From assembly GCF_988243305.1 (NCBI RefSeq), contig NZ_OZ547136.1: a stretch of DNA of 64,000 bases, one strand, 5' to 3'. This document shows positions 48,495 through 63,708 of this stretch, one piece after another. The translations under genes and the position numbers were made by a program. Numbering within the stretch: position 1 is the first letter of the stretch; each line of letters starts with the position of its first letter. Below the pieces are notes generated by a model, which saw only the letters and a program-made list of their open reading frames with translations, ran no database searches and was not told the DNA's origin.

Positions 48495-48538
48495 TTTAAT
48501 TAAATAATTTTCACCGCAAAAAGTGCCAAAAATCGCAA

Positions 48539-48597
48539 AATGACTACACCAGTGACTACACCGTTCGGTGCACTGTATGAAACAACGTGGAACAAAT
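48539..48597 (+). repeat. Arm-type direct repeat block, left end: tandem (A/G)TGACTACACC x2 followed by GAACAA-type repeats
   Basis: atGACTACACCaGTGACTACACCgttcggtgcac...gaaacaacgtggaacaa; homologous block at 63636-63708. Confidence 0.6.
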
Positions 48598-48827
48598 AGA
48601 CACAAGAAATATACAGGCGGATCATCTTTCCAGGGGGAAGCGCACCAATTCATGAGGGGCGTTAATGTCGATATGGGGATCCCCACCTACCGGAATTTTT
48701 TTCCGGTTAAACGTTAATCAGGCTGGTGGGCTTTACCTGTTCGGTAGGTGTTATGATTATCGTAATACCTTTCCCCCAATGGGGTAAAAGCATCAACCGT
48801 AACGAAAGTCGTTATGGTTGCCACTGA

Positions 48828-48899
48828 TACCCCAAATTTGGGTATCACGAGTAAGACCCAAAATCTGGGTGTTACTCTTACTACCCAAACTACGGGTAG
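48828..48899. repeat. Three consecutive inverted repeats with TACCC/GGGTA arms, plus a 20-bp perfect palindrome gagttgcagatctgcaactc at ~48919-48938
   Basis: taccccaaatttgggta, acccaaaatctgggt, ctacccaaactacgggtag read directly; function unknown. Confidence 0.5.
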
Positions 48900-49231
48900 T
48901 TTCCGTAGTTTCATGGTCGAGTTGCAGATCTGCAACTCCCCCATTAACCACAGGCGAATTTCCGCCTTCGGTCATTCCTTAATCATCTGCGTAATCATAA
49001 TGATTATTCAGCAAGCGCAATTTTGCACTTTGCTTAAAGTTCAGCGAGTTACCGCGCCGACTTCCTCAAATTGAGGTTTCCGAAAATATCAGCGGGTTAG
49101 CGATTAAGCTGATCATTAATTAAACTGCGAAAATTTCGTAGTTTGTGACTGTCTTTCAGGCAGCTTGTTAACAGTCCTCAGAAGCGAGGGATGTAGCCAC
49201 CCATTTTTGGTCCGTCGGGAATATCAACCAG

Positions 49232-49513
49232 TTACCGCCGCAACCGCTCCGGCTTCTTCCAGTGGTACGTTATTTTCTCCTTCTCCCGATACATCTCCAC
49301 GCGGCGACGGTAGGCCAGCAACTCAAGAACTCTGGTTCGTATGTTGCGCATATCCACGCCATTAAGTTCTATACCATCACGGCGCATCACCTCAGCAACA
49401 ACACGCGCATAGTTTTCGGCTGTCACGCTGTCCGGCTGCGTGGCCTGTTCGTCAGCCTGCTGGCTGATTCCGGCAACGCGGCGGATTAATCCCGTTATTT
49501 CGGCTTCTGTCAT
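49232..49513 (-). CDS. Hypothetical protein downstream of terminase
   Basis: 93-aa ORF MTEAEITGLIRRVAGISQQADEQATQPDSVTAENYARVVAEVMRRDGIEL... Confidence 0.4.
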   Translation of the reverse strand: MTEAEITGLIRRVAGISQQADEQATQPDSVTAENYARVVAEVMRRDGIELNGVDMRNIRTRVLELLAYRRRVEMYREKEKITYHWKKPERLRR

Positions 49514-49526
49514 GCTGCTGACCTCA

Positions 49527-51188
49527 TTACACCCCGCTAAATTCTTCCAGTTTCTGGCGGTGGCTGTCGCTTATATCAAAAGCAAAATCCTCATGCTCTG
49601 CCTGGAATGTACCAAACGCCATCAGCGCCGCCACGCTCGGGTCTATCTTGTTCGGTGATTTTTTCTTGTTCGGCTTGATATTGGCGTTCGCGTCACTCTG
49701 CATCACGACGTTACTCATCGACCAGGACAACACCGGATCGCCACGATGCACAATCACCCTGCGGTTAACAAAAACTTCGAACGATTTCGCCGCCGGACTG
49801 AATCTGAGGTAGGTTTGCGGGAACGGCTCCACCTCAAAACCTGCCCCCTGTAATTGCGTTCTGAGATGCGTGGCGTTCCACGTATCAAAGCCCACCAGCC
49901 TGATATTAAATTTCTCCGCGTCCTGCATGATGTCATCTCTGATCCGGTCGTAATCAATGCAGTCGCCAGGCGTTGTGCGTATCCAGCCTGCTTTAGCCCA
50001 CTGACGATAGATGGCGCGGTTTTTATTGGCGGGGTTCTGTAGCTGAAATTCCGGCAGATAGTGACGGGAAACCAGCATAATGGTTTTACCGACCGGAAAG
50101 GCATAGCACACGCTGGAAATATCGCTGGTTGATGATAAGTCCAGCCCCGCGTAACACTCCTGGCCGTGTAAATCTTCCTCCGTGAACGTTCCGGCACACT
50201 CAGCCCATGCGCCGTTACCCATCCACGGGGTAGCCCCCAGGCACCAGATATTAAATCGCTTTGTCATCATCTCCACCCACTGCGACGGAATACCCCGCGC
50301 TTTCTGGATGGTTGAGGCCAGTTTTTCACGATCCACGGAAACATCAATATTAGGGTTCGCCTTTATCCACATCGCCGGATCATCAACCTCGTTTTCGTCG
50401 TCCAGTTCGTAAATCAGTACAAAAATTGAATCGTTGACCTCTTCGCCGTCCAGGATCTGGCAGCAATAATCATAGTGCTGCTTACAGGCTGAAACGACGT
50501 TACTGCCTGATGTGGTAATAGCAAATAACAGCCCTTCGGGACGTGCGCCCATCCCCAGCTCAAGCGCGGAATAAACGCCGTTATCGGGGTGCAAGTGGTA
50601 TTCGTCCACGATGGAAAGGCTGGGGTTTGTTCCCTCGATGGTTGCCGCTTTTGCTGCCAGCGGCTTTAACAGGCTGTTGCTTTTCGGGTGTATCACCTTA
50701 TGCGCCTGAATATTCACCCGCCTGCGTAACGGTCGGGATAAAAGGCACATCTGACGCGCATCATCAAAGACGATCCGCGCCTGGTCACGGCTCACCGCTG
50801 CGGTGTAAATATCCTGCTGACCGTTCTCCATAATCAGAAACCAGTTAGCCAGAATCGCGGCGGTCGTGGATTTCGCATTTTTGCGCGGCACTTCGATAAA
50901 GGCGCTCGTGTATTTGCGCCGTCCGGTGGCCTTAACCTTAAAGCCGAGGATGCACGCAAAGGCGAACTGCTGCCACGGCTCCAGCTCAATGGGTCTGCCA
51001 CGCATCGGCCCTTTTACGTGCGGGCACACCCTGGAAAAGGCAATAAACCGCTCCACAACCTCACGATCGAACGTGTAAAGGGGGCTTTCAAGGTCCGAAA
51101 AGTACCGTTTAACGGCCTGTTTCAGCCGTTTACAGGCCGGAATTTTGCCCGTTTTTACGTCTTCTGCGTACTTATTCCAGGCGGTCAA
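49527..51188 (-). CDS. Terminase large subunit
   Basis: 553-aa ORF with ATPase Walker A-like region ...VPRKNAKSTTAAILANW... and C-terminal nuclease region; typical TerL size. Confidence 0.85.
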   Translation of the reverse strand: MTAWNKYAEDVKTGKIPACKRLKQAVKRYFSDLESPLYTFDREVVERFIAFSRVCPHVKGPMRGRPIELEPWQQFAFACILGFKVKATGRRKYTSAFIEVPRKNAKSTTAAILANWFLIMENGQQDIYTAAVSRDQARIVFDDARQMCLLSRPLRRRVNIQAHKVIHPKSNSLLKPLAAKAATIEGTNPSLSIVDEYHLHPDNGVYSALELGMGARPEGLLFAITTSGSNVVSACKQHYDYCCQILDGEEVNDSIFVLIYELDDENEVDDPAMWIKANPNIDVSVDREKLASTIQKARGIPSQWVEMMTKRFNIWCLGATPWMGNGAWAECAGTFTEEDLHGQECYAGLDLSSTSDISSVCYAFPVGKTIMLVSRHYLPEFQLQNPANKNRAIYRQWAKAGWIRTTPGDCIDYDRIRDDIMQDAEKFNIRLVGFDTWNATHLRTQLQGAGFEVEPFPQTYLRFSPAAKSFEVFVNRRVIVHRGDPVLSWSMSNVVMQSDANANIKPNKKKSPNKIDPSVAALMAFGTFQAEHEDFAFDISDSHRQKLEEFSGV

Positions 51189-51528
51189 GCTCGTCCTCTT
51201 CTTCTGTTTCCGGTGGATTTTTACGGCGGCTTATCGGGTCAAAACCGAGCAAGGAGGCCATTTTTATCATCACCCTTTCAGCGTCGGATTTTGCGCTTAA
51301 TGCGGGGTTTCTGCTCTCGCCGCCCTGACTGTTAACAATGCTGAACCCGCGCGCCGCAAGGTCTGCAACGGCTTTCCGGTAAATGGAGTAGTTGACACAA
51401 TACAGTTCCAGATTGCTCCAGTCGGCGGGGGTCAGGTCTCCCCGTTCCGCAAGCTGCCGCGATTTTTCCCGCCACTGCTTCACGGCGATGTCATCCAGGT
51501 AGGCGGGGGCTTTCGGTGGTCTTGCCAT
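51172..51528 (-). CDS. Terminase small subunit (P27-family-like)
   Basis: 118-aa ORF immediately upstream of and overlapping TerL. Confidence 0.55.
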   Translation of the reverse strand: MARPPKAPAYLDDIAVKQWREKSRQLAERGDLTPADWSNLELYCVNYSIYRKAVADLAARGFSIVNSQGGESRNPALSAKSDAERVMIKMASLLGFDPISRRKNPPETEEEDELDRLE

Positions 51529-51651
51529 ACTTATTTTTTCGCCAGATTATTTTTCAAAAAATTCCCGTGCATAAAAATTTGAGGAGGCGTTCGGTGCCCG
51601 GCGGGGTCGGGTTTGTCCTGAAAACGCCCCCCACCCCGTCATACAGCCTCA

Positions 51652-51834
51652 TCAGCGATTGCGGAAACATTCCATAACCTCGCGGTCACGGTCGGTTAAT
51701 CGCTTCGCTGTGATGCGTTCTGCGCGTCCTGACGCTTTATCTTTATGCCCTGTTTCCTGTGTCTTCCATGCGTCACGCTGCCTTATAAGTCCACGGATAA
51801 GGCGGTTTTGTTCCCGCTCATTCATCAGCGTCAT
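51652..51834 (-). CDS. Small hypothetical protein between HNH and TerS (start assumed at internal Met)
   Basis: MTLMNEREQNRLIRGLIRQRDAWKTQETGHKDKASGRAERITAKRLTDRDREVMECFRNR; fills otherwise empty 290-bp gap. Confidence 0.3.
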   Translation of the reverse strand: MTLMNEREQNRLIRGLIRQRDAWKTQETGHKDKASGRAERITAKRLTDRDREVMECFRNR

Positions 51835-52258
51835 ACATCCAGTTATTGCGGTTAGCGGACCGTTCTTCCTCTTCACGAAATCCACCTGCGGCACGCTTGC
51901 TTTTTGTTGCCGGATCAAGCCATTTCGTTTTCTGGTTATGACACGCCTGACACAATGGCTGATGGTTCCATTCGGGCCAGAAGAGAACATCATCGCCGCC
52001 ATCGATGGGGATAATGTGATCCACCACCACGGCGGGCGTATATATCCCCTTCTCAAGGCATCGCACGCATAACGGGTTTTTACTCAGATACATGGCGCGG
52101 TATTTGTCCCACTGTCTGGAGTACCCACGCGCGCGGCGGTGTCCTCGTCTGGCATCCTCTGCACGCCATGCCGCCCGCCTGTGCTCCTCACACTTACCGG
52201 ACTTAACGCGCCTGTTACAGCCTGGTTCTGTACATCGTCTTAATGGTTGCCACGGCAT
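51818..52258 (-). CDS. HNH endonuclease (terminase-associated)
   Basis: 146-aa ORF with Cys-rich N-terminus and HNH motif ...VVDHIIPIDGGDDVLFWPEWNHQPLCQACHNQKT. Confidence 0.8.
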   Translation of the reverse strand: MPWQPLRRCTEPGCNRRVKSGKCEEHRRAAWRAEDARRGHRRARGYSRQWDKYRAMYLSKNPLCVRCLEKGIYTPAVVVDHIIPIDGGDDVLFWPEWNHQPLCQACHNQKTKWLDPATKSKRAAGGFREEEERSANRNNWMYDADE

Positions 52259-52554
52259 CAGTACACCCCCACATCACGGTAAGCCGTCCAGAGTGCGCCT
52301 ATCGTCATGGGTACGCGCGTTTTTGCGTTATCCGCGACAATCTGGCGATTTTCATACAGGTGAGCGATAAACATCATGCAGCCAATCTTTATGGCTGGCG
52401 TGAACTCCAGCCCGTCATCAAAGCGCCTGCCTATGTGTATCTGGCACGCCTCAAGCGATGCGGCAATGTATCCGCTGATTAACTGGTCTTCATCGTCGCC
52501 ATCGATGCGGCAATGGAGTTTCACTTCTTCCAGGGTGATAAGTTCTTCTGTCAT
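52258..52554 (-). CDS. Head-tail connector protein (gp6-like)
   Basis: 98-aa ORF MTEELITLEEVKLHCRIDGDDEDQLISGYIAASLEACQIHIGRRF... Confidence 0.55.
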   Translation of the reverse strand: MTEELITLEEVKLHCRIDGDDEDQLISGYIAASLEACQIHIGRRFDDGLEFTPAIKIGCMMFIAHLYENRQIVADNAKTRVPMTIGALWTAYRDVGVY

Positions 52555-52889
52555 TTTTCCGCGCCCTCACGACAAAGAATTTCAAGGCGTGTCCTGGCGG
52601 CATCCGGCAACGGTTGCCCGATGATATTCAGTACACGCCCCGCCAGCGGCCCTGTATTGACCTTTATCCGACTGGTGGCGTTGATGTCCTTCCGGTAGCG
52701 TATCCATATCCTTACCGTTCCAGTCGCCAGCTCTGCACCTGATGAAATGGCCTCCTTGCTGCTGATCATGTTCACGCTTGCCCAGAGTGTGTGACCGTCC
52801 ACCCACGTTTCGAGTATTTCGCCGGTTATATCCCTGGTCTGTTTCAGGGTCTGAATCGTTACCCTGTCACGCAGTCGCCCTATGTTCAT
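52551..52889 (-). CDS. Head closure / head-tail adaptor protein
   Basis: MNIGRLRDRVTIQTLKQTRDITGEILETWVDGHTLWASVNMISSKEAISSG...; start placed at Met overlapping portal stop. Confidence 0.55.
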   Translation of the reverse strand: MNIGRLRDRVTIQTLKQTRDITGEILETWVDGHTLWASVNMISSKEAISSGAELATGTVRIWIRYRKDINATSRIKVNTGPLAGRVLNIIGQPLPDAARTRLEILCREGAEK

Positions 52890-54097
52890 TCCGGTTTTTC
52901 TCCCTCGCTGATTTTTACTTCCTGTTTCCATGCCTGGCTGAACTCATCACCACCATCACGCGGGGACAGCCCTTCACGTTCGCGGGCTTCGTTCGGGCAC
53001 ATAACGCCGGATTTGATGCCGCGTTCATAGGTGGCAAAGCGTTCGCCAGGTGTGGCCCGTAACAGGTCCGCGCTGTCAAACTCCACCTGATACCGGATAC
53101 CAGGTACAGGCGAGGCCACCAGCAGGGCGTTTTTTATCTGCTGCTCAAAGTTCGCCAGCCACGGGCGCATCGTCATGGTGAGAAATGCGCGGCTTGCCTC
53201 GCTGAAGTTGCTGTAGGTGCTGTTGCTGTATTCCTGCAAAAAAATCGGCGAGACGTTGAACATTCGGGCGATGTCTTCAATGGTGAAGCGACGGGAGGCC
53301 AGCCATTCGGCATCCTGATTACTCATGCCCAGCTGCTGATAGCTCATCCCCCCTTCAAGGATGGGCGTTTTTCCGGCGTTTCTGGCCCCTTTGTAGCGTT
53401 CCAGTGCGGCTAATGCCTGTTTGCCCTTCACGCCGTCCAGCCATTCGCCTGACGTGATAACCCCTGCCGCCATCATGCCATCACGCATCACGCTCGCGCC
53501 GTGGCGTTGTTGGGCCAGCCCAAGCCCCAGCGATTCGCGGCAGATGGTTACAGGTGAGCGCCCCATAAAACCGTCATCCGTGGAGTAACGAAGGTGGAGA
53601 ACCTCCCACGGTAAATAGTTGCGGGTGTTTCCGGTGTAGGCGTCAGTGATGCAGTAGCGCCAGTTATGATCACCTGTCTGCTCCACGTTCACCGACTGCG
53701 GCGGGTAAGGATGTAAAGCCACCGGAAAACCATCACGCCCCCACTGAATCACCGCATAAGCATTACCGTTTAACAGGCAGTGGCGGATCATCATTCGCTT
53801 AAACTGGTAGGGAGTCTGCCACGCGTTCGGGCGCTCGTTGAGGATGTGATCGACCGGATGAGAATCAAGCCACTCGCGGGCCTCCTTCCCCTTCTCATTG
53901 CGTACCAGGTACAGGTAACACGGCATGGTAGCCACCGCCTCAGAGATGACCGTCACGGCGTTCATGACGGCGGGCAGTGATTCCGCTGTCCCCGATGATA
54001 CGTACTCACCCGCCCCCGTGTTCGATGTGCCAGCCAGCGCCATAAACTCATCAAGCGTCATGCTGCGCTGCTCTTTTTTTCTTCTGAAAGGCCACAT
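52886..54097 (-). CDS. Portal protein (HK97 family)
   Basis: 403-aa ORF of typical portal size in a terminase/portal/protease/capsid cluster. Confidence 0.8.
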   Translation of the reverse strand: MWPFRRKKEQRSMTLDEFMALAGTSNTGAGEYVSSGTAESLPAVMNAVTVISEAVATMPCYLYLVRNEKGKEAREWLDSHPVDHILNERPNAWQTPYQFKRMMIRHCLLNGNAYAVIQWGRDGFPVALHPYPPQSVNVEQTGDHNWRYCITDAYTGNTRNYLPWEVLHLRYSTDDGFMGRSPVTICRESLGLGLAQQRHGASVMRDGMMAAGVITSGEWLDGVKGKQALAALERYKGARNAGKTPILEGGMSYQQLGMSNQDAEWLASRRFTIEDIARMFNVSPIFLQEYSNSTYSNFSEASRAFLTMTMRPWLANFEQQIKNALLVASPVPGIRYQVEFDSADLLRATPGERFATYERGIKSGVMCPNEAREREGLSPRDGGDEFSQAWKQEVKISEGEKPE

Positions 54098-54098
54098 A

Positions 54099-54671
54099 TC
54101 ACACCCCCGCTAAATCCACCCACCAGCGGCGATTATCCGCACGCGGCATTTTTTCGGGGTGCTGCTCATACAGGGAACGGCGGGCCAGCTCCACGCCGGA
54201 ATCGGGGTAAGCCGGTACCGATGTAACGGTAATTTCGTACAGTTCCGCCACCAGCACGGTGCGCACGCATGGATCTGTTGTGGTATCCCATACATCCTTA
54301 CGGGAGCGAAAGCCAAAGCTCATCCCCGAGATGTCCCCACGCTTAACCAGTTCGATAACGTCGCGCCCTGTACTGGTATCCGGTGGGGTCAGTTCAAAGC
54401 GTAACCCTGTTTCGTCCTCTTCCAGTTTCAGCGTGCCGGAACGGGTGCGCCCCAGTAACATGCTGTGGTCATGCTCATACAGGCCGCGAACGTCATTACC
54501 CGCCGCAAGCCACTCAGTAAACGCCCCCCGCTGGAATTTTTCGTAAAACTCCCCCCATAGCAGTTCTGAAAGCTTATCCCAGCGAACAACGTAGCCCGTC
54601 AGCGTACCGGCTCCGCTGGTAGTGATTTCCGATGACCGGATTTCCATACTCTTCATAATTTTTTCACCCAT
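54099..54671 (-). CDS. Prohead maturation protease (HK97 family)
   Basis: 190-aa ORF between capsid and portal genes. Confidence 0.7.
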   Translation of the reverse strand: MGEKIMKSMEIRSSEITTSGAGTLTGYVVRWDKLSELLWGEFYEKFQRGAFTEWLAAGNDVRGLYEHDHSMLLGRTRSGTLKLEEDETGLRFELTPPDTSTGRDVIELVKRGDISGMSFGFRSRKDVWDTTTDPCVRTVLVAELYEITVTSVPAYPDSGVELARRSLYEQHPEKMPRADNRRWWVDLAGV

Positions 54672-54710
54672 AAAACACTAAAGGGGCTTTTAAGCCCCTT
54701 CTGTATGCTG

Positions 54711-55868
54711 TTAATCGTCGTCCTGTGGCAGTTCCAGAATCTTGATCGCGTTCGAATCCACCACGCCACCGCCTAAATATTTCTGCGTGAAAATTTTGAT
54801 GAAGCCCGGCTCTGTGAGGTTGTCCGGTCTGGTGCGAACACCTGTTTCGTGATCAACAATGTAGTAACCGCGTTTGAAGTCACCCAGGGCAATAACGTTA
54901 TCCGGCATAAACTCCAGATATTCGACCGGAAGGCCCAGTAACGTATCAGGATCACCCGCCTGTAAACGGTCGCGCCAGATGTAATCACCGTTCGCGTTCT
55001 TCACCTTCTGAAGTTTTGCCGCCGTCGTGGAGTTAACCACCCAGACCGCGTTTTTGCGGTATTTTTTACGTAATGCAAATTTCAGGTCGATCAGCGGGTC
55101 CGCAGATGTCCACGCCAGAGATTCGGAAGGTTTAATTACCTGCAACGTACCAAAATCACGCTCTTTGTCGTTCTTCTCTGCACGGGGTACGGATAAAAAA
55201 CCTTTTGCTTTTTTGTCACCGTCGCCCACAACCAGATCGCTTTCTTCGGTTTCCGTGAAGGTGTCGCCAATCTCGCCCGTCAGCCATGAAAGGATGTCCA
55301 CATCGGAAAAATCCACGATTTCCTGTGTGGTGCGCGGGTACGCATAGACCGGATACAGCTTAATGCTCACCTCGTTAATCTGCGGGGTGCTGGTCTGTTC
55401 GCGTGTCTTACCCTCTTCACCGTGGTTAACGGTCGCACCGCCAGCGGAAACAAGCTGCTTAAACTCGTTGCTGCTGATTTTCTTCACGGTACAGATGCGG
55501 CGCATGGTGGACTCATCCGCCAGCATTCGCATGATTTCGGTGTTCAGTTCGGGGATAACGGTATAACCACCATCAGCGGGAACGCCTGTACTTAATGCGC
55601 GGGTTTCACCTGTCAGAATGTAGTTGCGTAGTTCTGCGGGGTCAGTGGTCTGGCTGCTTTTACCTGGCTTGCTGCGCTCTTCGTCTGCAATGGCTTCAAG
55701 GCGGGAAATGTCTTTATCGAGGGATTCAGCTTTAGCGCGTAATTCGTCAAATTTTGCGCCCTCAGCATCGTTAAGACTGCGGTTTTCTTTTTCCGCGTTC
55801 TCCAGCATGTCGCGCATCTGATTTTTAATGGCGGTTTTCTGCTGGCGTAATTCGATTATTCTCGGCAT
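54711..55868 (-). CDS. Major capsid protein (HK97 fold) with N-terminal coiled-coil delta/scaffold region
   Basis: MPRIIELRQQKTAIKNQMRDMLENAEKENRSLNDAEGAKFDELRAKAESLDKDISRLEAIADEE... then capsid domain; track ORF starts 15 codons upstream at a TTG. Confidence 0.8.
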   Translation of the reverse strand: MPRIIELRQQKTAIKNQMRDMLENAEKENRSLNDAEGAKFDELRAKAESLDKDISRLEAIADEERSKPGKSSQTTDPAELRNYILTGETRALSTGVPADGGYTVIPELNTEIMRMLADESTMRRICTVKKISSNEFKQLVSAGGATVNHGEEGKTREQTSTPQINEVSIKLYPVYAYPRTTQEIVDFSDVDILSWLTGEIGDTFTETEESDLVVGDGDKKAKGFLSVPRAEKNDKERDFGTLQVIKPSESLAWTSADPLIDLKFALRKKYRKNAVWVVNSTTAAKLQKVKNANGDYIWRDRLQAGDPDTLLGLPVEYLEFMPDNVIALGDFKRGYYIVDHETGVRTRPDNLTEPGFIKIFTQKYLGGGVVDSNAIKILELPQDDD

Positions 55869-56120
55869 AAAAAAAAGTCCTGGGGTTAAGTAAGGAACTC
55901 CAGGACGCGGCAAACACTCAACCGTTTTTCATAAGGAAATCAGCAATCGCACCGATCGTTTTCCCGCCTGGTAATGAATATTGGCGAGCACATTAACAGG
56001 CGGGAAAGTGGCCCCAGCGTCCTGGCACCACGGGCGAGAATAATCATGATTCAGTTCGGGTAAAATATGCCGATCCGCTCAGTGAACAACGTGGAACAAC
56101 CACGAACAAATAATTTACAA

Positions 56121-56150
56121 AAAATAACAAAAAGCCGGATTGCTCCGGCT
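56121..56150 (-). terminator. Rho-independent terminator
   Basis: Hairpin agccgga-ttgc-tccggct followed on minus strand by TTTTGTTATTTT. Confidence 0.6.
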
Positions 56151-56169
56151 GTATGTGCTGTATGGGTGC

Positions 56170-56394
56170 TCAGTCTCTGATCCCTTTCAGAAATTCTATC
56201 AATGCATCTGTCTGTTCAGGATTTACTGCCAGCATTTCACCGGATAGCGCGCAACGAACAAAACCATGATGATCCTTTTCAATCAGTGCGCCCGTCTCCA
56301 GGAATGCGCGGTAATCATTGATGCTCATCGTCTCCATGTTGTCAGCATGGTATTTATCACGCTGTTTTAATATCTCATCAAATTTCATCGGCAT
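56170..56394 (-). CDS. Small hypothetical protein (start at internal ATG)
   Basis: MPMKFDEILKQRDKYHADNMETMSINDYRAFLETGALIEKDHHGFVRCALSGEMLAVNPEQTDALIEFLKGIRD. Confidence 0.45.
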   Translation of the reverse strand: MPMKFDEILKQRDKYHADNMETMSINDYRAFLETGALIEKDHHGFVRCALSGEMLAVNPEQTDALIEFLKGIRD

Positions 56395-56489
56395 TGTTTT
56401 TTCCTCTGTTGTGTCTGTTTGTTTCAGATAGTAACTATGCCTGACCGTGACGAAAACCCGGTAATGCGCCATACCGTTTCAACTGGTGC

Positions 56490-56513
56490 AAAAAAAGCCG
56501 GATTTCTCCGGCT
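56490..56513 (-). terminator. Rho-independent terminator
   Basis: Hairpin agccgga-tttc-tccggct preceded on plus strand by AAAAAA (T-run on minus). Confidence 0.6.
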
Positions 56514-56563
56514 GTGTGATTAGCTGTCCTGGTAATTGCGCCATATTTCATCACCAGCACCAT

Positions 56564-56791
56564 CTATCCCCATTTCGGCATAAGTGCGATCGACTGCCTT
56601 TTCAGGTCTCCGTAATTATCCGGTGGCTCCGGTGGCCTCTGTGCCTTCCTGGAACATTCCAGCCGTCGCATCGTGATGTGATGCCGTTCCTTGTCTGTCT
56701 CCACCAGCAGCATGACTTCACCCCATCGCGCCGACGCCCTCCGGTAAAATCCTTTAGCCTCGAGTTCCTCCGCTATGCGGTCATGTACCAT
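56564..56791 (-). CDS. PerC-family-like transcriptional regulator (start uncertain)
   Basis: ...AEELEAKGFYRRASARWGEVMLLVETDKERHHITMRRLECSRKAQ... resembles PerC; track ORF overlaps the SSB gene so a downstream start is assumed. Confidence 0.4.
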   Translation of the reverse strand: MVHDRIAEELEAKGFYRRASARWGEVMLLVETDKERHHITMRRLECSRKAQRPPEPPDNYGDLKRQSIALMPKWG

Positions 56792-56801
56792 CCTCACCCC
56801 C

Positions 56802-57212
56802 TCAGAACGGAATACCGTCACCGTAAGGGTCATCGCCTCCCGCTGGTGGCTGATTACCCTGTGTGCCTGTGGTTTTGCGTCTGTTCCCGCCAGGACGTGC
56901 CGCACGGGCACTGATTACGCTGTCTGCAATAACCTGCCAGCCCTGCCGCGTTTCTCCGTTCTGTCCGGTCCACTGGCTTACCTGCATCGTGCCGGATACG
57001 CTGGCAACATCGCCTTTTTGATGTTTAGCCAGGAAGTCGGCCTGTTTGCCAAATGCGATGACCGATAACCATAACGTCGCCTGTCCGTCCTGTGCCTGGC
57101 TGCATGGCAAAGATACCGCCATACGCGCCAGCGTCATCGGTGTGCCCTTGCTGGTCTGTTTTACCTGCGGGTCGTCCACCAGCCGCCCGTAAGCGGCTAT
57201 CTGTGCCGTCAT
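56802..57212 (-). CDS. Single-stranded DNA-binding protein (phage type)
   Basis: 136-aa ORF with OB-fold-like N-terminus, Gly/Gln/Pro-rich linker and acidic C-terminal tail DDPYGDGIPF. Confidence 0.7.
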   Translation of the reverse strand: MTAQIAAYGRLVDDPQVKQTSKGTPMTLARMAVSLPCSQAQDGQATLWLSVIAFGKQADFLAKHQKGDVASVSGTMQVSQWTGQNGETRQGWQVIADSVISARAARPGGNRRKTTGTQGNQPPAGGDDPYGDGIPF

Positions 57213-57409
57213 AATTCCACCTCTCCGGTTTTAACGTTGATGGTTGTTACCTGTTCCGCTTCGGCAATCTCCCGTTCTGTCAGCGTGGCAAAGTTTGCCG
57301 CCGCCGTGGTCATGAATGCGCTTATCAGGTCGGGATGTTCCTTCGCGTATCCTTCCCGCGTGTGGCGGTCTATCGTTCTGATTGCCACCTTTAAAGCGTG
57401 CTCAGTCAT
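57209..57409 (-). CDS. Small hypothetical protein (start at internal ATG to avoid the iteron region)
   Basis: MTEHALKVAIRTIDRHTREGYAKEHPDLISAFMTTAAANFATLTEREIAEAEQ... Confidence 0.35.
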   Translation of the reverse strand: MTEHALKVAIRTIDRHTREGYAKEHPDLISAFMTTAAANFATLTEREIAEAEQVTTINVKTGEVEL

Positions 57410-57469
57410 GTCTAACGCTTTATATTTTGGCTCTGTTCTGTCTCTGCGTTTTTGGGTCATTTCTCGCAA

Positions 57470-57665
57470 CCTCTCACTTTTTCGCCTCACTTTTTCAAGC
57501 GTCTCACTTCGTCGCAGTTGGGATTTTCGGTTTTTCTATGTGTGTGTTTCATAAGTATTTTTTTACCCCTCACTTTTGAGGATGTATACAGGTCGAAAAG
57601 TGAGGGAGAGCGGGCTAATTTTGGCCCTCTTTCTATCCCCCTCGCTTTTGCTCCTCACTTTTATA
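57470..57665. repeat. Island replication origin candidate: six or more CTCACTTTT iterons (one inverted) with an AT-rich stretch, directly downstream of the helicase gene
   Basis: cctctcactttttcgcctcactttttcaagcgtctcacttc...cccctcacttttgagg...cgaaaagtgaggg...ctcgcttttgctcctcactttta. Confidence 0.7.
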
Positions 57666-59061
57666 GCGGCGCTACATCATCCCCATCGATACGAATAACC
57701 CCATCTTTTTCCAGCTTGTACAGCCAGCGCCGGAAGTTTTTCATTTCATACCCCAGTTTTTTCATGTCATCACGTAACAGCGGGATCGTGCACTTGTCGC
57801 CGTTCTGTGTGCGTGAACGGATGCACCCCCATAGCGCGGTATGGTTTTCCGTCTTGTTCCCTGCCTCCTCGATGCGCTCCAGTTCAACAGGAGGGCGCGG
57901 ATCATCCACCACTACCAGCGACGTGATTAATTCACCGTCAGCGTCGGTAAAAAGCTCCACCACGCGTAAGTCATATGCGGCTTCTTTGAGTTCCTCCGCG
58001 TCCTTCATTTTGGTGCATGAGATAACCAGCGCTTCGCTTCCTGCGTCCTCCCTGCGTATCCGGTATTCAGCATCCAGCGAAGCACGAAATGCACTGGAAC
58101 CGCGCGCGCCTTTCGTCTCATCCTTGCCGGAATGGTGAACCACCAGCACCGTGGCCCCTGTGCGTCGTTTCAGTTCGTCACAACCACGGATAAACGCCCC
58201 CATATCACGGGAATCATTTTCATCATTCCCACCAAAGCAACGCGCCAGCGTATCCAGAATAATCATGCGTACAGGTTTACCCGTTTCCCGCTCCACCTGA
58301 CGGGCAGCGATAACCATTTCATCAACATCAAGCGGGGCAGCCGGAAAGATGGGGCGGTTTACCAGATACAGATTTTTCACCTGCTCATCGTGCACAACCT
58401 CCCAGGCTTTTACACGACGCGGAACACCTATACCGCCTTCACCAACCACATAGAGAACCGCACCATGTGCAACCCTGCGGCCTCCCCACTGGCGACCAGT
58501 GGCAACATGGCACGCCCACGATCCGGCAAGGAATGATTTATAGGACCCGCTAGCCCCGTATATGCTGCATAGCGATACCGCCGGAATAATCCCCTTAACC
58601 ACGTAATCCAGTTGCGTGTCGTATCCGGTAGATCCAACGCTCATCGGTAGCGTGGTTTTTCGCTGGTGGTTTTTTTCTTCCACCGGCTCTTTCCCGCGCA
58701 CCCGTTCCAGGTATTCGCGCCAGTTCTCCCGCATATGGCTGTGCATCCCTTCGGGGTAATAATTCGCATCAGTTACACCCGCCGCCGCCAGCTTGTGCGC
58801 AATGGCATTAATATTTGATGGCCTGATGTGGCCTGCCTTGTACAGCCGGACACAATAGCGCCCCTCGTCGATGATTCTCAGGTCTGCCAGTTCATCCAGT
58901 TGATCATCAGCCAGCACAACGGGAGGCACATTATCGCCAGCCAGTCGCCCGTCCTGTTCCTGCCACTGTTTCGCATGTGCCCAGGCATCACTACCCGCAA
59001 AAATAATGACTTCGGTCATCTTGTCGTAAGGCTGTTTTTTTAAGTTCGGTGCGCTTTTCAT
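57661..59061 (-). CDS. Replication initiator / helicase-like RecA-fold ATPase (RepA/DnaB-like)
   Basis: 466-aa ORF with Walker A GASGSYKS and RecA-like C-terminal domain; followed by iterons. Confidence 0.65.
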   Translation of the reverse strand: MKSAPNLKKQPYDKMTEVIIFAGSDAWAHAKQWQEQDGRLAGDNVPPVVLADDQLDELADLRIIDEGRYCVRLYKAGHIRPSNINAIAHKLAAAGVTDANYYPEGMHSHMRENWREYLERVRGKEPVEEKNHQRKTTLPMSVGSTGYDTQLDYVVKGIIPAVSLCSIYGASGSYKSFLAGSWACHVATGRQWGGRRVAHGAVLYVVGEGGIGVPRRVKAWEVVHDEQVKNLYLVNRPIFPAAPLDVDEMVIAARQVERETGKPVRMIILDTLARCFGGNDENDSRDMGAFIRGCDELKRRTGATVLVVHHSGKDETKGARGSSAFRASLDAEYRIRREDAGSEALVISCTKMKDAEELKEAAYDLRVVELFTDADGELITSLVVVDDPRPPVELERIEEAGNKTENHTALWGCIRSRTQNGDKCTIPLLRDDMKKLGYEMKNFRRWLYKLEKDGVIRIDGDDVAPL

Positions 59062-59357
59062 TTCTTGCCCCTGAATCCGTTAATCATGGTTTTCAGCTTC
59101 TGGATGTTTGCCCGTGCCCTGGCGTTGCTGGTGGGCACGTTATGCGGCGCGGTCTGTACCAGAGAAAAATCACGCCGGAACTGATAAACAGGCATCACGC
59201 AATCATATTCGTAACCTTCACGGCGGTAGGTTACGCGCCGTTCTTCCACGCCCTTAATCATTACCGTGCCGCCGTACTGGTCGCGGTAAATATCACCGCG
59301 CGTAAATTTAGGGTGAGTGTTGCCACTGGCAGTTAAGCCAGAATATTTAAGTTTCAT
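59058..59357 (-). CDS. Hypothetical protein
   Basis: 99-aa ORF translationally coupled to helicase gene. Confidence 0.4.
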   Translation of the reverse strand: MKLKYSGLTASGNTHPKFTRGDIYRDQYGGTVMIKGVEERRVTYRREGYEYDCVMPVYQFRRDFSLVQTAPHNVPTSNARARANIQKLKTMINGFRGKK

Positions 59358-59362
59358 TATTT

Positions 59363-59596
59363 TTATTCTCCGGTGTGCTGTTCTTTATATCTGTCGTGCA
59401 ATAGATCTATTTCTTGCAGTTCCATTATTACAGGCTCAAGAAGCGTTATTAATGCCGTGGCAATTCTTGATTTTTGTTTGTCGCGTTCATTGTCGCCAAG
59501 TGTTTCAAGCCATATGCGCAATATTTCCAGCATGTTTTCACTGTGAGAAAGTGCAAGAAATACGCGGTCTATTGTTTCGTGGTAAATATCACGCAT
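59363..59596 (-). CDS. Hypothetical protein
   Basis: 77-aa ORF in same-strand small-gene array. Confidence 0.4.
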   Translation of the reverse strand: MRDIYHETIDRVFLALSHSENMLEILRIWLETLGDNERDKQKSRIATALITLLEPVIMELQEIDLLHDRYKEQHTGE

Positions 59597-59597
59597 A

Positions 59598-59819
59598 TTA
59601 ATCCCCGTCCGTCGTTTTTCTTAAAATAACCTCTGTCACGAAATCAGCATAATCGGCGGCGATATTCAGTACATCAAGCCCCGTTGATTTATATTCTCTC
59701 GTGGAAAGTAAGAAAAAAGCCGCTCTAATAAGTTCTGGCATTGACGAAAGCGCATCAGCCGCATCATCAGGAACGCCGGAAAATTCCTGTTTCAGGGAAT
59801 TAAAACGATCATCACGCAT
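59598..59819 (-). CDS. Hypothetical protein
   Basis: 73-aa ORF in same-strand small-gene array. Confidence 0.4.
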   Translation of the reverse strand: MRDDRFNSLKQEFSGVPDDAADALSSMPELIRAAFFLLSTREYKSTGLDVLNIAADYADFVTEVILRKTTDGD

Positions 59820-60034
59820 AACCCCCCCCCATTTTCACAATCAGCAACAAGAATATTTTTAGCGTCATTCAGCGACCGCGTTGCGATGTATCGGATACAT
59901 TCCAGGGCGAACTGTGTCCGGTCTTTCTGTTCTTCTCCCTGCGCAAGCTCTGCAGTGCATTCAATATCGATAAGCGCGTGCATCAGCGTAGTGAGCGCGG
60001 CGGCTGCTGCGTCCGGTGTGGTTTTATTGCACAT
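59792..60034 (-). CDS. Hypothetical protein (start at internal Met)
   Basis: MCNKTTPDAAAAALTTLMHALIDIECTAELAQGEEQKDRTQFALECIRYIATRSLNDAKNILVADCENGGG... Confidence 0.35.
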   Translation of the reverse strand: MCNKTTPDAAAAALTTLMHALIDIECTAELAQGEEQKDRTQFALECIRYIATRSLNDAKNILVADCENGGGLCVMIVLIP

Positions 60035-60314
60035 GGCACACCTCCTGACGAATACGGGCGGCGAATACAGCAACACAACCGGACGGGCAACGGCTACGCG
60101 CTTCGCGTTCCGTCCAGGCGGTTACGTGGATGATTTGAGATTCTCCGGCACTTAGTGCCAGAAAACGCCACACAAAGGCCGTTTGTGTGTGTATAAGGCG
60201 TGGTATATGATTTACGGCAACCATAACGGCTCCTAGTTTACGTTGTTGGTTAGACGCCCCGTATGTGTTCCCAGCACTGCGGGGCGTTGATTTTTGTGTA
60301 ATGGCAAGTACAAT

Positions 60315-60358
60315 GGTAATTACCATGTAGGTATAGTAATGAAGGGTAATTACCATGT
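60315..60358. promoter_or_regulatory. Two copies of operator-like palindrome GGTAATTACCATGT, the second overlapping the RHH gene start codon
   Basis: caatGGTAATTACCATGTaggtatagtaatgaaggGGTAATTACCATGtca. Confidence 0.6.
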
Positions 60359-60528
60359 CAACACCATTAGAAAAACGTTCGCCTCCATACCAAATGCGAT
60401 TACCGGAAGACTTCAGAGCGCAGCTAGAAGAAGCAGCTAAGGCCGATGGCGACACATCTTTAGCCACTTGGATTAAACGCGTTCTCCGCAAAGAATTACA
60501 GCAACGCGGCATAGAGCCAAAAGGTTGA
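60355..60528 (+). CDS. Ribbon-helix-helix (Arc/CopG-like) DNA-binding protein
   Basis: 57-aa product MSTPLEKRSPPYQMRLPEDFRAQLEEAAKADGDTSLATWIKRVLRKELQQRGIEPKG; RHH-like beta-strand (MRLPEDF) then helices; too short for ORF track. Confidence 0.55.
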   Translation: MSTPLEKRSPPYQMRLPEDFRAQLEEAAKADGDTSLATWIKRVLRKELQQRGIEPKG

Positions 60529-60549
60529 ATTTCAGAAGGAGATAAAATA

Positions 60550-60702
60550 ATGAACTGGCTGTTACATACCCTCCCAGGTCGCATTCTCATTGCACTAATT
60601 ATTTTATGGATTTTGTACCAATTCGGTTTTTTCGATTCGCTTTGGAAGCCTGACTGTTCCGTTAACCCTGGCGATGTACTGAAAGGCTGTAAAAATGGCT
60701 GA
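60550..60702 (+). CDS. Small membrane protein (50 aa)
   Basis: MNWLLHTLPGRILIALIILWILYQFGFFDSLWKPDCSVNPGDVLKGCKNG; SD aggagat; followed by hairpin ccctctt/aagaggg terminator. Confidence 0.45.
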   Translation: MNWLLHTLPGRILIALIILWILYQFGFFDSLWKPDCSVNPGDVLKGCKNG

Positions 60703-61057
60703 TCAGGGTTACTCCCTGTAATGCCTTTAACTGGCCCTCTTAAAGAGGGTTGGTTATCTTCGCAGCTCTCTACGTTTTTCGTCGGAACCTCTGAACCTAA
60801 GCAGTGTTGATGTTCAGGAGAACCCGAATACTGTTCGTGTTCGTTGCTCGCCAATTCTCGCGTTTCGCGATAATCAAAATGATTCAATGGGTTGAGATGT
60901 CCGTACGTTAAACGTACGCGGTTAATTTGTACATGCGAATTTCGTCGGCTCAAATTCTGCGCAACCCTGCTTGAGTTATGCAAATAGCACGCGGCTAACT
61001 CACAAGGATTTGAGCGCCCCCAAACGGGGGAGCGCAAAATTTTAGGCATAAGACGCA

Positions 61058-61771
61058 TCAGCGAATCTCCAACACTGACGATGAAGTGATCAGGCTGGCG
61101 AACGCATCCATACGGCGGGCAACCTCACGCACCGCATCGCCTGGACTCATGTCATTACGCACCGCCTCATTAAAGGCCGCCTGTTCGATTTTCTGCATCA
61201 CTACCAACAGCCCCAATTGCTGTTCGTCTGCGGTACCGCGTTCACCATCAGACAAACCAGCCACGCGGTTTTCAGCGCGGGCCAGATTGATGTAATGGTG
61301 CCGTTGTGCGCCCAGAGCTTTTAATCTGTCGCGGCTTTCGTGATAGCCAGGCAGGTACTCACGGCGGATAGGTTCTGCGGCGCGGCGCTTAGTGAATGCC
61401 TTCGTAACATCCAGTTTGAACTGGTTAATACGCTCAGGATCACGCCCTCGGGTGATACGCAGCAGATAGTCGAGCTGCGGCTCATTCAGCAGATAACTAA
61501 TCTCAGGACGCCCACGCTTTCGGCCGGATTTTCCCGATTTCAAATCGGTTAATTCCTTGAGTGACTGACGAGGCAGTGATCCCAGCTCGCGCAATCTGCT
61601 CTGGTGCGATTTAATCGTCGCGCTTAAGCTTTCATGTTGTATTCCGGCTCGCTCTGAAATAACGCGGGAATCGATACGCGGCTCCGATTTGTGATTAATT
61701 AAAATATCGCTCTGGCTGGCTTCAGGGCGAACGAATCCCCGCCCACGTTCTGGCGTATATTCAATCTTCAT
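61058..61771 (-). CDS. Phage regulatory protein (Rha-family-like), assignment tentative
   Basis: 237-aa ORF; N-terminal ...ILINHKSEPRIDSRVISERAGIQHESLSATIKSHQSRL... resembles Rha-type regulators. Confidence 0.4.
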   Translation of the reverse strand: MKIEYTPERGRGFVRPEASQSDILINHKSEPRIDSRVISERAGIQHESLSATIKSHQSRLRELGSLPRQSLKELTDLKSGKSGRKRGRPEISYLLNEPQLDYLLRITRGRDPERINQFKLDVTKAFTKRRAAEPIRREYLPGYHESRDRLKALGAQRHHYINLARAENRVAGLSDGERGTADEQQLGLLVVMQKIEQAAFNEAVRNDMSPGDAVREVARRMDAFASLITSSSVLEIR

Positions 61772-61828
61772 GGTTATAGCTCTGTGTTCAGATGATTGAT
61801 GTGTGGCGGCTGCGTGCCGCCAGCGTGA

Positions 61829-62017
61829 TTAATGAACTGCCTTGCAGCTATCCTTCCAGGCCAGAACCTCGGATAAAGACCAGCCAACGGAACGACCGCC
61901 AAGTTTACGACGTGATGGGAATTGTCCGGCCTTTTCCAGGCGGTAGCGACACGTACGGCTAAGGCCGGTTAGTTTTTCGCATTCTTTTTCACGTATAAAC
62001 CGATCAGTGCTTAACAC
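61829..62017 (-). CDS. alpA: AlpA-family transcriptional regulator / excisionase
   Basis: 62-aa ORF ...EKLTGLSRTCRYRLEKAGQFPSRRKLGGRSVGWSLSEVLAW... (AlpA HTH pattern). Confidence 0.7.
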   Translation of the reverse strand: MLSTDRFIREKECEKLTGLSRTCRYRLEKAGQFPSRRKLGGRSVGWSLSEVLAWKDSCKAVH

Positions 62018-62290
62018 TATTGCCCCCTTTCGTTTCTTAAAGAGTCATCAGGTGTCTTATTGTGTCGTATTGTTCCCGCTAGAGTGATAAATGGCAAATA
62101 CTGAGGATGTATGATTTACAGAAAATGAAACAGTAAGAATAAAATCTTTTAAATTCATGTTAATACAAAGGCATAAAATATTGTTTCATGCCTTTTTTCT
62201 CGCTCTTTAAAGAGTGATTCGCTAGTGTATAAAAAACCAGTAACGCATTAAAAATCAGCTACTTATAAATCCGTACGCTTTTTCGCCTCT

Positions 62291-62340
62291 TGTTCGTAGT
62301 TGTTCCACATTGTTGCTCATTGTTGCACGTTGTATCTGTT
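62291..62340. repeat. Five tandem 10-bp repeats TGTTnnnnnT (GAACAA-type on minus strand) between int and alpA
   Basis: tgttcgtagt tgttccacat tgttgctcat tgttgcacgt tgtatctgtt read directly. Confidence 0.55.
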
Positions 62341-62381
62341 CGCATATACAGTATGCGCATACTGAAAAAACACGAAAAAAA

Positions 62382-63599
62382 TTATTTTCTTCTGGCTACT
62401 GGTAGCGTGGTTACGTTTTCATGTGTTCCCGCCAGTATCCCTAACCGCTCCGTCCACATATCCAGCGCATTGCGTTTAGCATCCAGATAACGGGAATGAT
62501 TATAAACTCGCTGCATTCCTGGCATCTGGTGGCCTGTAAGCTGCTCCACGACATGCGGATCAACGCCTAAATCGTTCAGCATGGTTGTAAAGGTGCGCCG
62601 GATGTCATGCAGTGACCAGTGAGGATGATTAAGCCTCCTGTGCGCTAATCTTCCATACTGCGATACGCTGGCCTCCTGTTTCACTTCCCCCAGCAATAAG
62701 CCCGTGTGCCTGTTCTGCTCCACCAGCTGCGTGACGAACGGCAGGATCGCTTCCGGTATGGGCCGGAATATTGCGACCTTCGTTTTGCTGTGCTCCTTCG
62801 GAACGGTCCATAGCATTTCCGTAAAATCCCACTCCCCGATCTCCGATAACCTCAGTTCTACCGTTCTGGCTCCGAAGACAATCAGGAGGCGGATTAACGC
62901 GACGTAGTAAGGGGAGAATATTTTTTTGTCCAGTGCCTGCAATAATTCGCCAAGTTCTTTGTTACTTAAGACACGTTCGCTTATATCCGGTTTTTTCCCA
63001 ACGTCCGCCACGTTCAGATCGTCCAGAACGTTGCTGATTGCATAGCGCCGCCTACGGCAGAACTTAAGCGCCTGTTTGCACGCCTGTAGCACGAATCCGG
63101 CAGTAACAGGCGTTCGCTTTGCCACCTGGTCAAAACAGGCCAGCCAGTGCCGTAGCTCGCATTTATCCAGCGGCATAGCACCAATCTGCTGTATTACGTG
63201 ATTATTAAGTCGCCTTTTCAGGGCGATATAATCCACGCGGTTTTCCTTTACGTAATACTCAAGCCAGTAGGTGAGCGCATCGCCAACCGTTACGGGCTTT
63301 AACGCTTCCTGTACGGTGTAATTCATCTCATGACGTGGATTTTTCCCCTCAGCCAGCCATGTGCGACACTGTGCGGCTTTTTCCCTGGCTGCTTTCAGGC
63401 TCAGATCAGGATAACTTCCCAGCTTAATGCGTTCGGGTCGTGTCTCCCTTCCCGTTCCGGCCCTGTATGTGAAATACCAGGTCAATTTCCCTGATGTTAA
63501 ATATTTCACGCTCAGGTTTCCGCCATCACTATAAAACGTGTTTTTCTCCGCTGGCTTACCATGAAGTTTCCTTAGCAAGGTATCGCTCAGTTTGTTCAT
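62382..63599 (-). CDS. int: Tyrosine integrase (P4-like, PICI-type)
   Basis: MNKLSDTLLRKLHGKPAEKNTFYSDGGNLSVKYLTSGKLTWYFTYRAG...; C-terminal ...HDIRRTFTTMLNDLGVDPHVVEQLTGHQMPGMQRVYNHSRY; track ORF starts 4 codons earlier at GTG. Confidence 0.9.
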   Translation of the reverse strand: MNKLSDTLLRKLHGKPAEKNTFYSDGGNLSVKYLTSGKLTWYFTYRAGTGRETRPERIKLGSYPDLSLKAAREKAAQCRTWLAEGKNPRHEMNYTVQEALKPVTVGDALTYWLEYYVKENRVDYIALKRRLNNHVIQQIGAMPLDKCELRHWLACFDQVAKRTPVTAGFVLQACKQALKFCRRRRYAISNVLDDLNVADVGKKPDISERVLSNKELGELLQALDKKIFSPYYVALIRLLIVFGARTVELRLSEIGEWDFTEMLWTVPKEHSKTKVAIFRPIPEAILPFVTQLVEQNRHTGLLLGEVKQEASVSQYGRLAHRRLNHPHWSLHDIRRTFTTMLNDLGVDPHVVEQLTGHQMPGMQRVYNHSRYLDAKRNALDMWTERLGILAGTHENVTTLPVARRK

Positions 63600-63635
63600 T
63601 GCTCTGCTCACGTTTTACCCCCTCTTTACGAAAAA

Positions 63636-63708
63636 GTGACTACACCAGTGACTACACCGATCGTTGCACAAAGGGCTACAACGTGAAACAAGCTGGAACA
63701 AGGAAAAT
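63636..63708 (+). repeat. Arm-type direct repeat block, right end (GTGACTACACC x2 plus GAAACAA/GGAACAA)
   Basis: gtGACTACACCaGTGACTACACCgatcgttgcac...gtgaaacaagctggaacaa; matches left block at 48539-48597. Confidence 0.6.

Follow-up and report, generated by a model that had tools for sequence, protein, structure and literature searches.

Which proteins read the short repeats that lie inside both ends of a phage satellite, and what could the similar repeats placed upstream of its genes be doing? This question is raised by an island located in a stretch of 64,000 nucleotides of Escherichia coli DNA (NCBI RefSeq assembly GCF_988243305.1, contig NZ_OZ547136.1), which is called the window here and to which all the positions refer. 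The island (about 48458-63795, 15.3 kb between its attachment (att) cores) is inserted in the AI-2 transporter gene tqsA, and it is a capsid-forming phage-inducible chromosomal island (cf-PICI) of the EcCIEDL933 kind; EcCIEDL933, the prototype cf-PICI, is described in the literature as induced by a helper phage and transferred in small capsids with helper tails. A first, sequence-only reading had described a homologous block of about 60 bp at each end of the island and GAACAA repeats at two internal sites, and it had proposed integrase binding together with a possible shared regulator of the AlpA type. The analysis described here separates two types of repeats, doublets and phased arrays, which are probably the operators of the two DNA-binding proteins of the island, the integrase (Int) and AlpA, respectively. 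The repeats would most likely be docking sites for both proteins, linking excision, AlpA expression and capsid gene expression.

The doublets consist of two direct copies of TGACTACACC on the plus strand with a period of 12 bp, and they are proposed as Int arm-type sites. One of them is located on the attL side (48541-48550 and 48553-48562) and the other one on the attR side (63637-63646 and 63649-63658), 38 bp upstream of the int start codon; the four exact copies of TGACTACACC in the window are all in these two doublets. The arrays, proposed as AlpA operators, are made of 10-bp units with the consensus CGTGGAACAA, in which AACAA is nearly invariant according to a matrix built from 15 units (the units listed here score at least 5 bits). 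Three units (TATGAAACAA, CGTGGAACAA and ATAGACACAA) form the attL-side array (48576-48605, plus strand), whereas four units form the attR-side array (63662-63701, plus strand), whose start is 3 bp away from the Int doublet and which extends toward the core. The array between int and alpA (62290-62339, minus strand) contains five units with GAACAA directed toward alpA and could serve auto-activation, and the array upstream of the capsid operon (56080-56109, plus strand) contains the units CAGTGAACAA, CGTGGAACAA and CCACGAACAA, which read TTGTTC along the direction of transcription. The phasing of 10 bp is exact, and the position of the attR array, in an att arm and beside a candidate arm-type site of Int, is the one expected for operators of a recombination directionality factor (RDF). 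Besides, two weaker GAAACA units (63745-63764, plus strand; unit scores 7.2 and 5.4) are found nearer the core, and a comparable core-proximal second array is present in three related loci (L190, L223 and L072).

The geometry given by the sequence-only reading was reproduced, and it is far beyond what chance would give: its four sites lie within 1-2 bp of the positions that it reported, three units precede the capsid operon and five separate int from alpA. It had placed the end blocks about 75-80 bp inside the att cores, and the measured distances are 74 bp from core to doublet at attL and, at attR, 85 bp from the last strong unit to the core (79 bp from the end of the block as it was first delimited). 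The direct homology between both ends corresponds to a 76-nucleotide repeat with 76% identity (48537-48612 and 63633-63708), which is family D2 of an unprompted repeat search whose top families (D1, D2, I1, I2 and I5) are these same repeats. In the 64-kb window, the pattern RAACAA-N4-RAACAA has 5 matches against 0.06 expected, and ACAA-N6-ACAA-N6-ACAA has 7 matches against 0.00 expected from shuffles, all of them within the four reported sites. Scored as three phased matrix units, the two att arms and the regions upstream of alpA and of the capsid operon reach 31.8-37.3, whereas the highest value obtained from either strand of the 48.4 kb of chromosome that lie outside the island is 10.0. The pattern counts, which were not trained, constitute the cleaner test because the matrix was trained on the sites themselves.

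The repeats can be assigned to their partners because the modules of these islands are naturally shuffled among relatives. The replication module is freely exchanged, from a 100% identical helicase to unrelated primase types, and the capsid module is wholly missing in many related islands. Relatives were collected by searching viral contigs with AlpA (69 loci, AlpA 89-100% identical) and by an alignment-based search of viral contigs, which returned mostly known loci together with twelve new ones (L177-L188) and added lineages with AlpA at 64-69% identity. AlpA relatives from 100,044 genomes were mostly at 32-55% identity and in unrelated contexts, and only the Erwinia and Buttiauxella loci (AlpA about 62-67%) were informative; a search with the capsid protein added cf-PICIs with other int and alpA types.

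The tyrosine integrase is encoded at 62382-63599 (minus strand) and contains an N-terminal Arm DNA-binding domain (PF13356, residues 4-91, 1.1e-17) and a catalytic PF00589 domain (residues 210-371, 7.3e-16). On the int strand its doublet reads GGTGTAGTCAC twice with the period of 12 bp, and this type accompanies the Int proteins whose start is ...NKLSDTLLRKLHG (...DTLLRKLHG). Those starting with ...NKLSDTQLRKING (...DTQLRKING) are accompanied by GGTGTAGTTAAT twice, a 67%-identical Int (...DSTLKKL) by TGTGTGGTCAGT twice and the Buttiauxella Int (...DTSLRKMLG) by KGTGCAGTCAGT twice. Four doublet types pair with four types of Int N-terminus, at attR as well as at the distant attL. The agreement at attR could be explained by linkage alone, because the doublet is only about 40 bp from the int start. 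On the other hand, the attL doublet is 13-15 kb from int and switches likewise in 25 of 26 loci belonging to the two classes represented by more than two loci, and in 27 of 28 over all the N-terminal types (in both counts, some contigs had been fetched twice). Between class 1 and class 2 Int there are 40 differences, 14 of which fall in residues 1-40, inside the Pfam Arm-DNA-bind_3 domain. A natural chimera (L011) shares residues 1-40 with the Int of the window and has class 1 doublets at attR, whereas from residue 41 to residue 200 it agrees with class 2, whose chromosomal site it also occupies; from this domain swap it follows that the doublet type follows the arm domain and the choice of site follows the rest of Int. 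The doublets are found in both arms, are distinct from the core and covary with the arm domain, as arm-type sites do, and we read them as putative Int arm-type sites that would be bound by the N-terminal domain of the integrase.

This covariation does not extend to the arrays of the same block, which keep the same motif across the four Int N-terminal variants whose doublets all change; in particular, the attR array is unchanged across the two Int arm classes. Consequently, the earlier proposal of integrase binding seems to hold for the doublet and not for the arrays, and the block of about 60 bp, which had been taken as one arm-type element, is better described as two separate elements with different partners. 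The arrays are also unchanged in islands with unrelated replication proteins (RepA-type helicase, DUF927 and primase family), and the attL array persists in relatives (L055-L062) with an unrelated inner flank. They are present wherever the AlpA clade occurs, at 62-100% AlpA identity and including the Buttiauxella and Erwinia loci, and no arrays were found in cf-PICI L227 (AlpA at 43% identity) or in L228, which has a different Xis-like gene. In the spacer between int and alpA, the ACAA positions are kept among relatives while the four spacer bases drift, and whole 10-bp units have been gained (L040) or lost (L043 group), so that the phase is preserved. Hence the suggestion of a shared regulator of the AlpA type is supported by the comparison of sequences, since the arrays appear to follow the AlpA clade and to ignore swaps of Int and of the replication module.

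AlpA itself (61829-62017, minus strand; 61-62 amino acids) and its homologues carry PF05930, and the protein models as a winged helix of the excisionase type, with the fold of Xis, TorI and RdfS. The AlphaFold model has a pLDDT of 87.5, and its best PDB match is the GIsul2 excisionase (8c3t, TM 0.84, 38% identity; sequence match E 2.5e-6), followed by RdfS, TorI and Pukovnik Xis. It has been reported that RDFs characteristically bind head-to-tail on direct repeats one helical turn apart and that several of them also regulate promoters; related to this, Apl, Cox and RdfS employ one set of operators both at att and at promoters (PMC7498355, PMC11963761). In EcCICFT073, AlpA activates the promoter of its own gene, and its over-expression alone triggers Int-dependent excision and replication while int expression remains unchanged (PMC6092414). 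Published work has also described that the induction and transfer of EcCIEDL933 need alpA, as does the excision of EcCIMP1. The AlpA accession WP_000953272.1 is common to the cf-PICI of E. coli O157:H7, which has all four arrays, and to an island 98% identical to the one studied here, whose AlpA is 100% identical to that of the window. No AlpA operator in PICIs was found in the published literature. Taking the pattern of co-occurrence into account, AlpA appears as the best candidate to bind the arrays, and a role as directionality factor and activator through them fits its published function.

The protein called AlpA in Pseudomonas aeruginosa was considered as a model for the island protein and rejected. 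It is a longer and unrelated Q-like antiterminator, with an N-terminal ring in the RNA exit channel and a C-terminal helix-turn-helix (DNA-contact residues numbered 128-142) that binds GGGACG between -35 and -10, whereas the AlpA of the island is a 61-amino acid PF05930 winged helix; the common name is a coincidence.

Several other features surround alpA. In the lineages with AlpA at 64-69% identity, a GC-rich hairpin followed by a T-run stands immediately before the alpA start codon (L072 8540-8600; L179-L188), and in the majority of these lineages two CGAAC repeats with a spacing of 11 bp lie within it. In another relative (L190 2540-2580), a TTGTTC array lies just downstream of alpA, before the next gene. 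In the island of the window, a perfect 16-bp palindrome, CAGTATGCGCATACTG (62348-62363), is placed between the int stop codon and the array upstream of alpA, and the lineage whose AlpA is 93% identical does not keep it.

The sequence-only reading had also connected AlpA with capsid expression, and one result supports this connection. The classical PICIs with the same Int and AlpA contain exactly three arrays (attR, upstream of alpA and attL), whereas the cf-PICIs contain a fourth one, which in all cases closely follows the terminator that ends the preceding operon and precedes the capsid gene by about 215 bp. In the window, the intrinsic terminator (56133-56150, minus strand) closes the upstream operon just before the array. 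The block TTTTGTAAATTATTTGTTCGTGGTTGTTCCA(C/G)GTTGTTC (56084-56122) is nearly unchanged in L047 and L067-L069, even though their capsid genes are 64-74% identical and their flanks barely align; in L060 the middle unit differs. The presence of the fourth array only in capsid-forming relatives, nearly unchanged despite diverged flanks, suggests that AlpA may act on the capsid operon. The element of the capsid site is present in 402 of 5426 complete E. coli genomes (about 7%), always in unannotated DNA.

Between this array and the major capsid protein gene there is an untranslated leader or promoter region (55869-56079, minus strand), in which a sigma-70 search found no recognisable promoter; the published work on EcCIEDL933 makes no mention of a promoter for this operon. 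The leader folds better than shuffled controls (RNA fold z = -4.56). Directly before the capsid ATG, at 55869-55906, a stem (GTCCTGG/CCAGGAC) followed by T8 holds the only Shine-Dalgarno-like AGGA, and the stem is kept in a diverged lineage (L226); this hairpin with its T8 looks like a terminator or a translational gate.

From the placement of the sites and the literature on AlpA, the following sequence of events can be proposed. The N-terminal domain of the heterobivalent integrase would bind the doublets in each att arm, while AlpA monomers would line up head-to-tail on the arrays, one for each helical turn, and bend the DNA. A signal from the helper phage would raise alpA expression, and AlpA would then fill the five-unit array upstream of its own gene, giving rise to a positive feedback. 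It would also fill the arrays of the att arms and promote excision; the attR array abuts the Int doublet on the core side, like Xis beside P2 of lambda, and the bent AlpA filament might help Int to bridge arm and core in the excision reaction. Finally, AlpA would fill the three-unit array before the capsid and packaging operon and switch this operon on, so that one small protein would time excision, signal amplification and capsid production. Which protein binds which repeat, and the sign of the regulation at each site, are what we infer from the observed conservation and co-occurrence. A more speculative extension, which is possible and rather doubtful, is that the arrays constitute a portable plug: a captured module would join the AlpA programme by gaining three 10-bp units in front, lineages with another master regulator would swap the plug, as with the TTACCC repeats described below, and a single filament-forming protein of the excisionase type would be a complete timing device, in which the order and sign of the responses would depend on how many units an array has and on whether it presents GAACAA (to alpA) or TTGTTC (to int, to the capsid gene and to other operons).

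Various observations weigh against AlpA as the reader of all the arrays. AlpA and Int are tightly linked in every locus, for this reason co-occurrence cannot fully separate them and the argument rests on the arm-domain swaps that spare the arrays. The motif shows no visible change from 62% to 100% AlpA identity, so the relation with AlpA is a co-occurrence and not a true compensatory covariation. The attL array is distal to the doublet, a position that the lambda Xis model, which fits attR only, does not explain, and the orientation of the arrays differs, with GAACAA toward alpA and TTGTTC toward int and the capsid gene. The array upstream of alpA and the start of this gene are separated by about 270-320 bp that include a conserved hairpin, and no promoter can be placed; sigma-70 scans at the four sites gave nothing convincing beside the capsid or attR arrays and weak matches well downstream of the alpA array, and transcription starts are not placeable for this reason. 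Besides, a fusion of the EcCICFT073 int promoter did not respond to AlpA despite the array upstream of int (PMC6092414).

The capsid slot of two other cf-PICIs points in the same direction. In L228 (8780-8830) and L225 (520-570), the conserved TTTTGTAAATTAT is followed by TTACCC repeats that replace TTGTTC: three repeats of this type, 10 bp apart (one of them degenerate, GTACTC, in L225), precede a terminator-like hairpin. No AlpA was found by tblastn in either of them; nor was there a match to the TTACCC repeats near the int of L228, near its Xis-like gene or at its far end, or elsewhere in L225. As these repeats are unmatched near the int and Xis-like genes, the binder at the capsid operon could be another factor. 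The capsid slot is clearly a swappable operator position, with a putative binder in that lineage and, strictly, in the island of the window too.

If AlpA did not read the arrays, the binder could be a host DNA-bending protein, a response regulator of the OmpR/PhoB type, an inducer of alpA from the helper phage or another conserved protein of the island, such as the DUF4222 protein encoded at 59058-59357. OmpR/PhoB-type proteins also read direct repeats of 10-11 bp, the helper factor that switches on alpA is not identified in published work (PMC6092414), and the repeats in the capsid slot of L228 and L225, which do not match those near their Xis-like gene, hint that the capsid binder need not resemble an excisionase. 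The DUF4222 protein is encoded in 51 of 51 long array-bearing E. coli loci and is the only other universally co-occurring E. coli protein. Nevertheless, it falls to 34% identity while the motif remains constant, and the Buttiauxella and Erwinia loci, where it was not detected, keep the arrays at attR. A helper or host activator is not expected to need sites in both att arms beside the Int doublets, the island of the window has no other recognised excisionase gene, and related PICIs need AlpA for excision, all of which makes a binder other than AlpA unlikely. Among the products of the island, a 57-amino acid ribbon-helix-helix protein similar to Arc and CopG (60355-60528), whose small open reading frame (ORF) is the only plus-strand gene of the island according to the ORF list, was also tried as array binder and discarded, because only 11 of the 51 array-bearing loci carry it.

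It could also be thought that the integrase finds a second class of arm-type sites in the arrays, so that the 60-bp block as a whole is its landing pad and the internal copies serve its autoregulation. The arrays abut the doublets at both ends, and in lambda the arm-type sites P'1-P'3 are likewise consecutive direct repeats about 10 bp apart; however, the arrays are invariant across four Int arm-domain variants with changed doublets, down to 67% Int identity, and the ones preceding alpA and the capsid operon have no doublet beside them, so this explanation is very improbable. Phased short repeats are typical of replication origins and of some pac or cos regions, and the iterons of the P4 origin, TGTTCACC, resemble GTGAACA, which would allow the arrays to be origin iterons or recognition repeats of a small terminase. 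Against this, the arrays remain unchanged with different replication proteins, three of the four are found in classical PICIs, where no capsid module was detected, and a separate set of repeats lies beside the helicase gene, at 57478-57662. The arrays are indifferent to the replication module and none of them adjoins the helicase gene; origin iterons are therefore ruled out, and replication or packaging signals as a whole are most unlikely. Finally, the repeats might be a neutral by-product of the duplication of an att-arm block, with an internal likeness due to chance. The att-arm blocks, 76% identical over 76 nucleotides, are for this reason homologous by descent, but none of the phased matches would be expected in shuffles and the units are exactly phased, ACAA persists as the spacers drift, the units change in whole 10-bp steps, and the block of the capsid site is nearly invariant across divergent lineages. 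This last explanation is hardly tenable, as it is already contradicted by the conservation.

The arrangement is of a known type: a heterobivalent integrase with arm sites, and a winged-helix directionality factor with phased operators that also serve promoters. As in lambda attP, the integrase has a separate arm-binding domain, each arm contains repeats of the arm type that are set apart from a short core, and at attR direct repeats one helical turn apart are placed between arm site and core, like the Xis sites (X1-X1.5-X2) beside P2. The differences from lambda are that the 12-bp doublets are co-oriented and stand at about 90 and 144 bp from the centre of the core, that the other arm has a second array on the distal side of its doublet and that the arrays are found again at two promoters; no IHF sites were identified. 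A close parallel for the proposed double role of AlpA is offered by the dual RDFs, such as Apl of 186, Cox of P2, Vis of P4, TorI of KplE1 and RdfS of ICEMlSym, which are small winged-helix proteins coupling excision to transcription (PMC7498355, PMC11963761), a coupling that would apply here by inference; Cox also activates the P4 late promoter. As with the Apl and Cox type, one operator motif is found at the att arms and at the putative promoters of alpA and of the capsid operon. On the other hand, Apl and Cox mostly repress the lysis-lysogeny switch, whereas the AlpA of PICIs has been reported as an activator and auto-activator; no clear motif has been shown for RdfS, in contrast to the sharp AACAA found here; and the regulon proposed here would extend to a structural operon, that of the capsid.

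The helper-embedded PICIs (HE-PICIs) provide a close precedent for the doublets. They also have an int-alpA module, and a tandem doublet with a period of 12 bp (tgTGTATTGCa twice) occurs in them two times, co-oriented and at unequal distances from the attP centre (81 and 132 bp, to be compared with about 90 and 144 bp here), although its sequence is different and the motif was reported as not found in other PICIs (PMC10111431). The study, published in 2023, left open whether the binder was the Int arm domain, AlpA or another protein (PMC10111431). The co-variation described above favours the Int arm domain for the doublet and AlpA for the adjacent arrays, and it suggests that the doubled attP motif of the HE-PICI study belongs to the arm domain of the integrase and not to AlpA.

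For a specialist, the design is familiar and would not be surprising; the sites had not previously been mapped for these elements. What is new is the predicted operator motif, the rule of three versus four arrays, which ties the capsid module to the int-alpA module, and the evidence that assigns the doubled attP motifs of PICIs to the integrase arm domain. Published views of AlpA in the phage satellites of Gram-negative bacteria differ, as it has been considered an activator, an excisionase or both (PMC6092414, PMC10803314, PMC11773190, PMC10111431), and a phased motif in both att arms and before alpA and the capsid operon offers a mutable target for its dual role. It also gives a sequence-level account of a possible link between satellite induction and a captured capsid module, and the matrix together with the array rule could aid the annotation of PICI boundaries and AlpA regulons.

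With respect to the island as a whole, its boundaries are marked by the 9-bp core TGCTGTTAT, present as a direct repeat at the left (48458-48466, in the interrupted tqsA) and right (63787-63795) junctions. When both flanks are joined through a single copy of the core, the rebuilt empty site shows 100% identity to intact tqsA, and 5170 of 5426 complete E. coli genomes contain 80% or more of this site as one piece; the boundaries and the core are secure for this reason. The int, alpA and helicase (replication) genes are grouped at one end, and the minus strand carries all the genes of the island apart from the small ORF already mentioned, including the RepA-family helicase gene (57661-59061), ssb, a PerC-like gene and small ORFs. 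The capsid and packaging operon starts with the major capsid protein gene (54711-55868, minus strand), as indicated by the ORF list and by the RefSeq annotation of the 98%-identical island, and continues with the genes for the prohead protease, portal, connectors, HNH, TerS and the large terminase TerL (49527-51188). The same gene set, with no tail genes listed, is annotated in the 98%-identical island; an own capsid and packaging module, no tail genes and a size of about 15.3 kb, with about 15 kb expected, correspond to a cf-PICI. Gene order and modules are those of EcCIEDL933. The O157:H7 island is located between phoQ and roxA and has class 2 doublets, whereas the island of the window is in tqsA and has class 1 doublets; the replication module and the accessory region (60024-61771) also differ. 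This region is the main part of the island that is missing from close relatives, and its 237-amino acid ORF is present in none of the 51 loci.

Some further observations were made along the island, in which an Rfam scan gave 0 matches. Two terminator hairpins with 93% identity (56129-56155 and 56492-56518) flank a 100-amino acid ORF (56170-56472) that only 18 of 51 related loci contain, in the manner of an inserted cassette. The repeats beside the helicase gene, just downstream of it, are three copies of TTTTnCnCCTCACTTTT (57478-57494, 57561-57577 and 57646-57662) spaced 83-85 bp apart, which constitute a candidate replication origin separate from the GAACAA arrays. Next to attL there is an unannotated stretch of about 600 bp (48606-49230), for which a cos site can be raised as a question, and an 18-bp perfectly complementary inverted repeat has one arm near attL in unannotated DNA (48717-48734) and the other one inside the large terminase gene (49887-49904). 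In one of the related contigs (L051, 1-310), an arm of the attL type is joined via the core to an arm of the attR type, and this contig represents either tandem islands or the attP junction of an excised circle.

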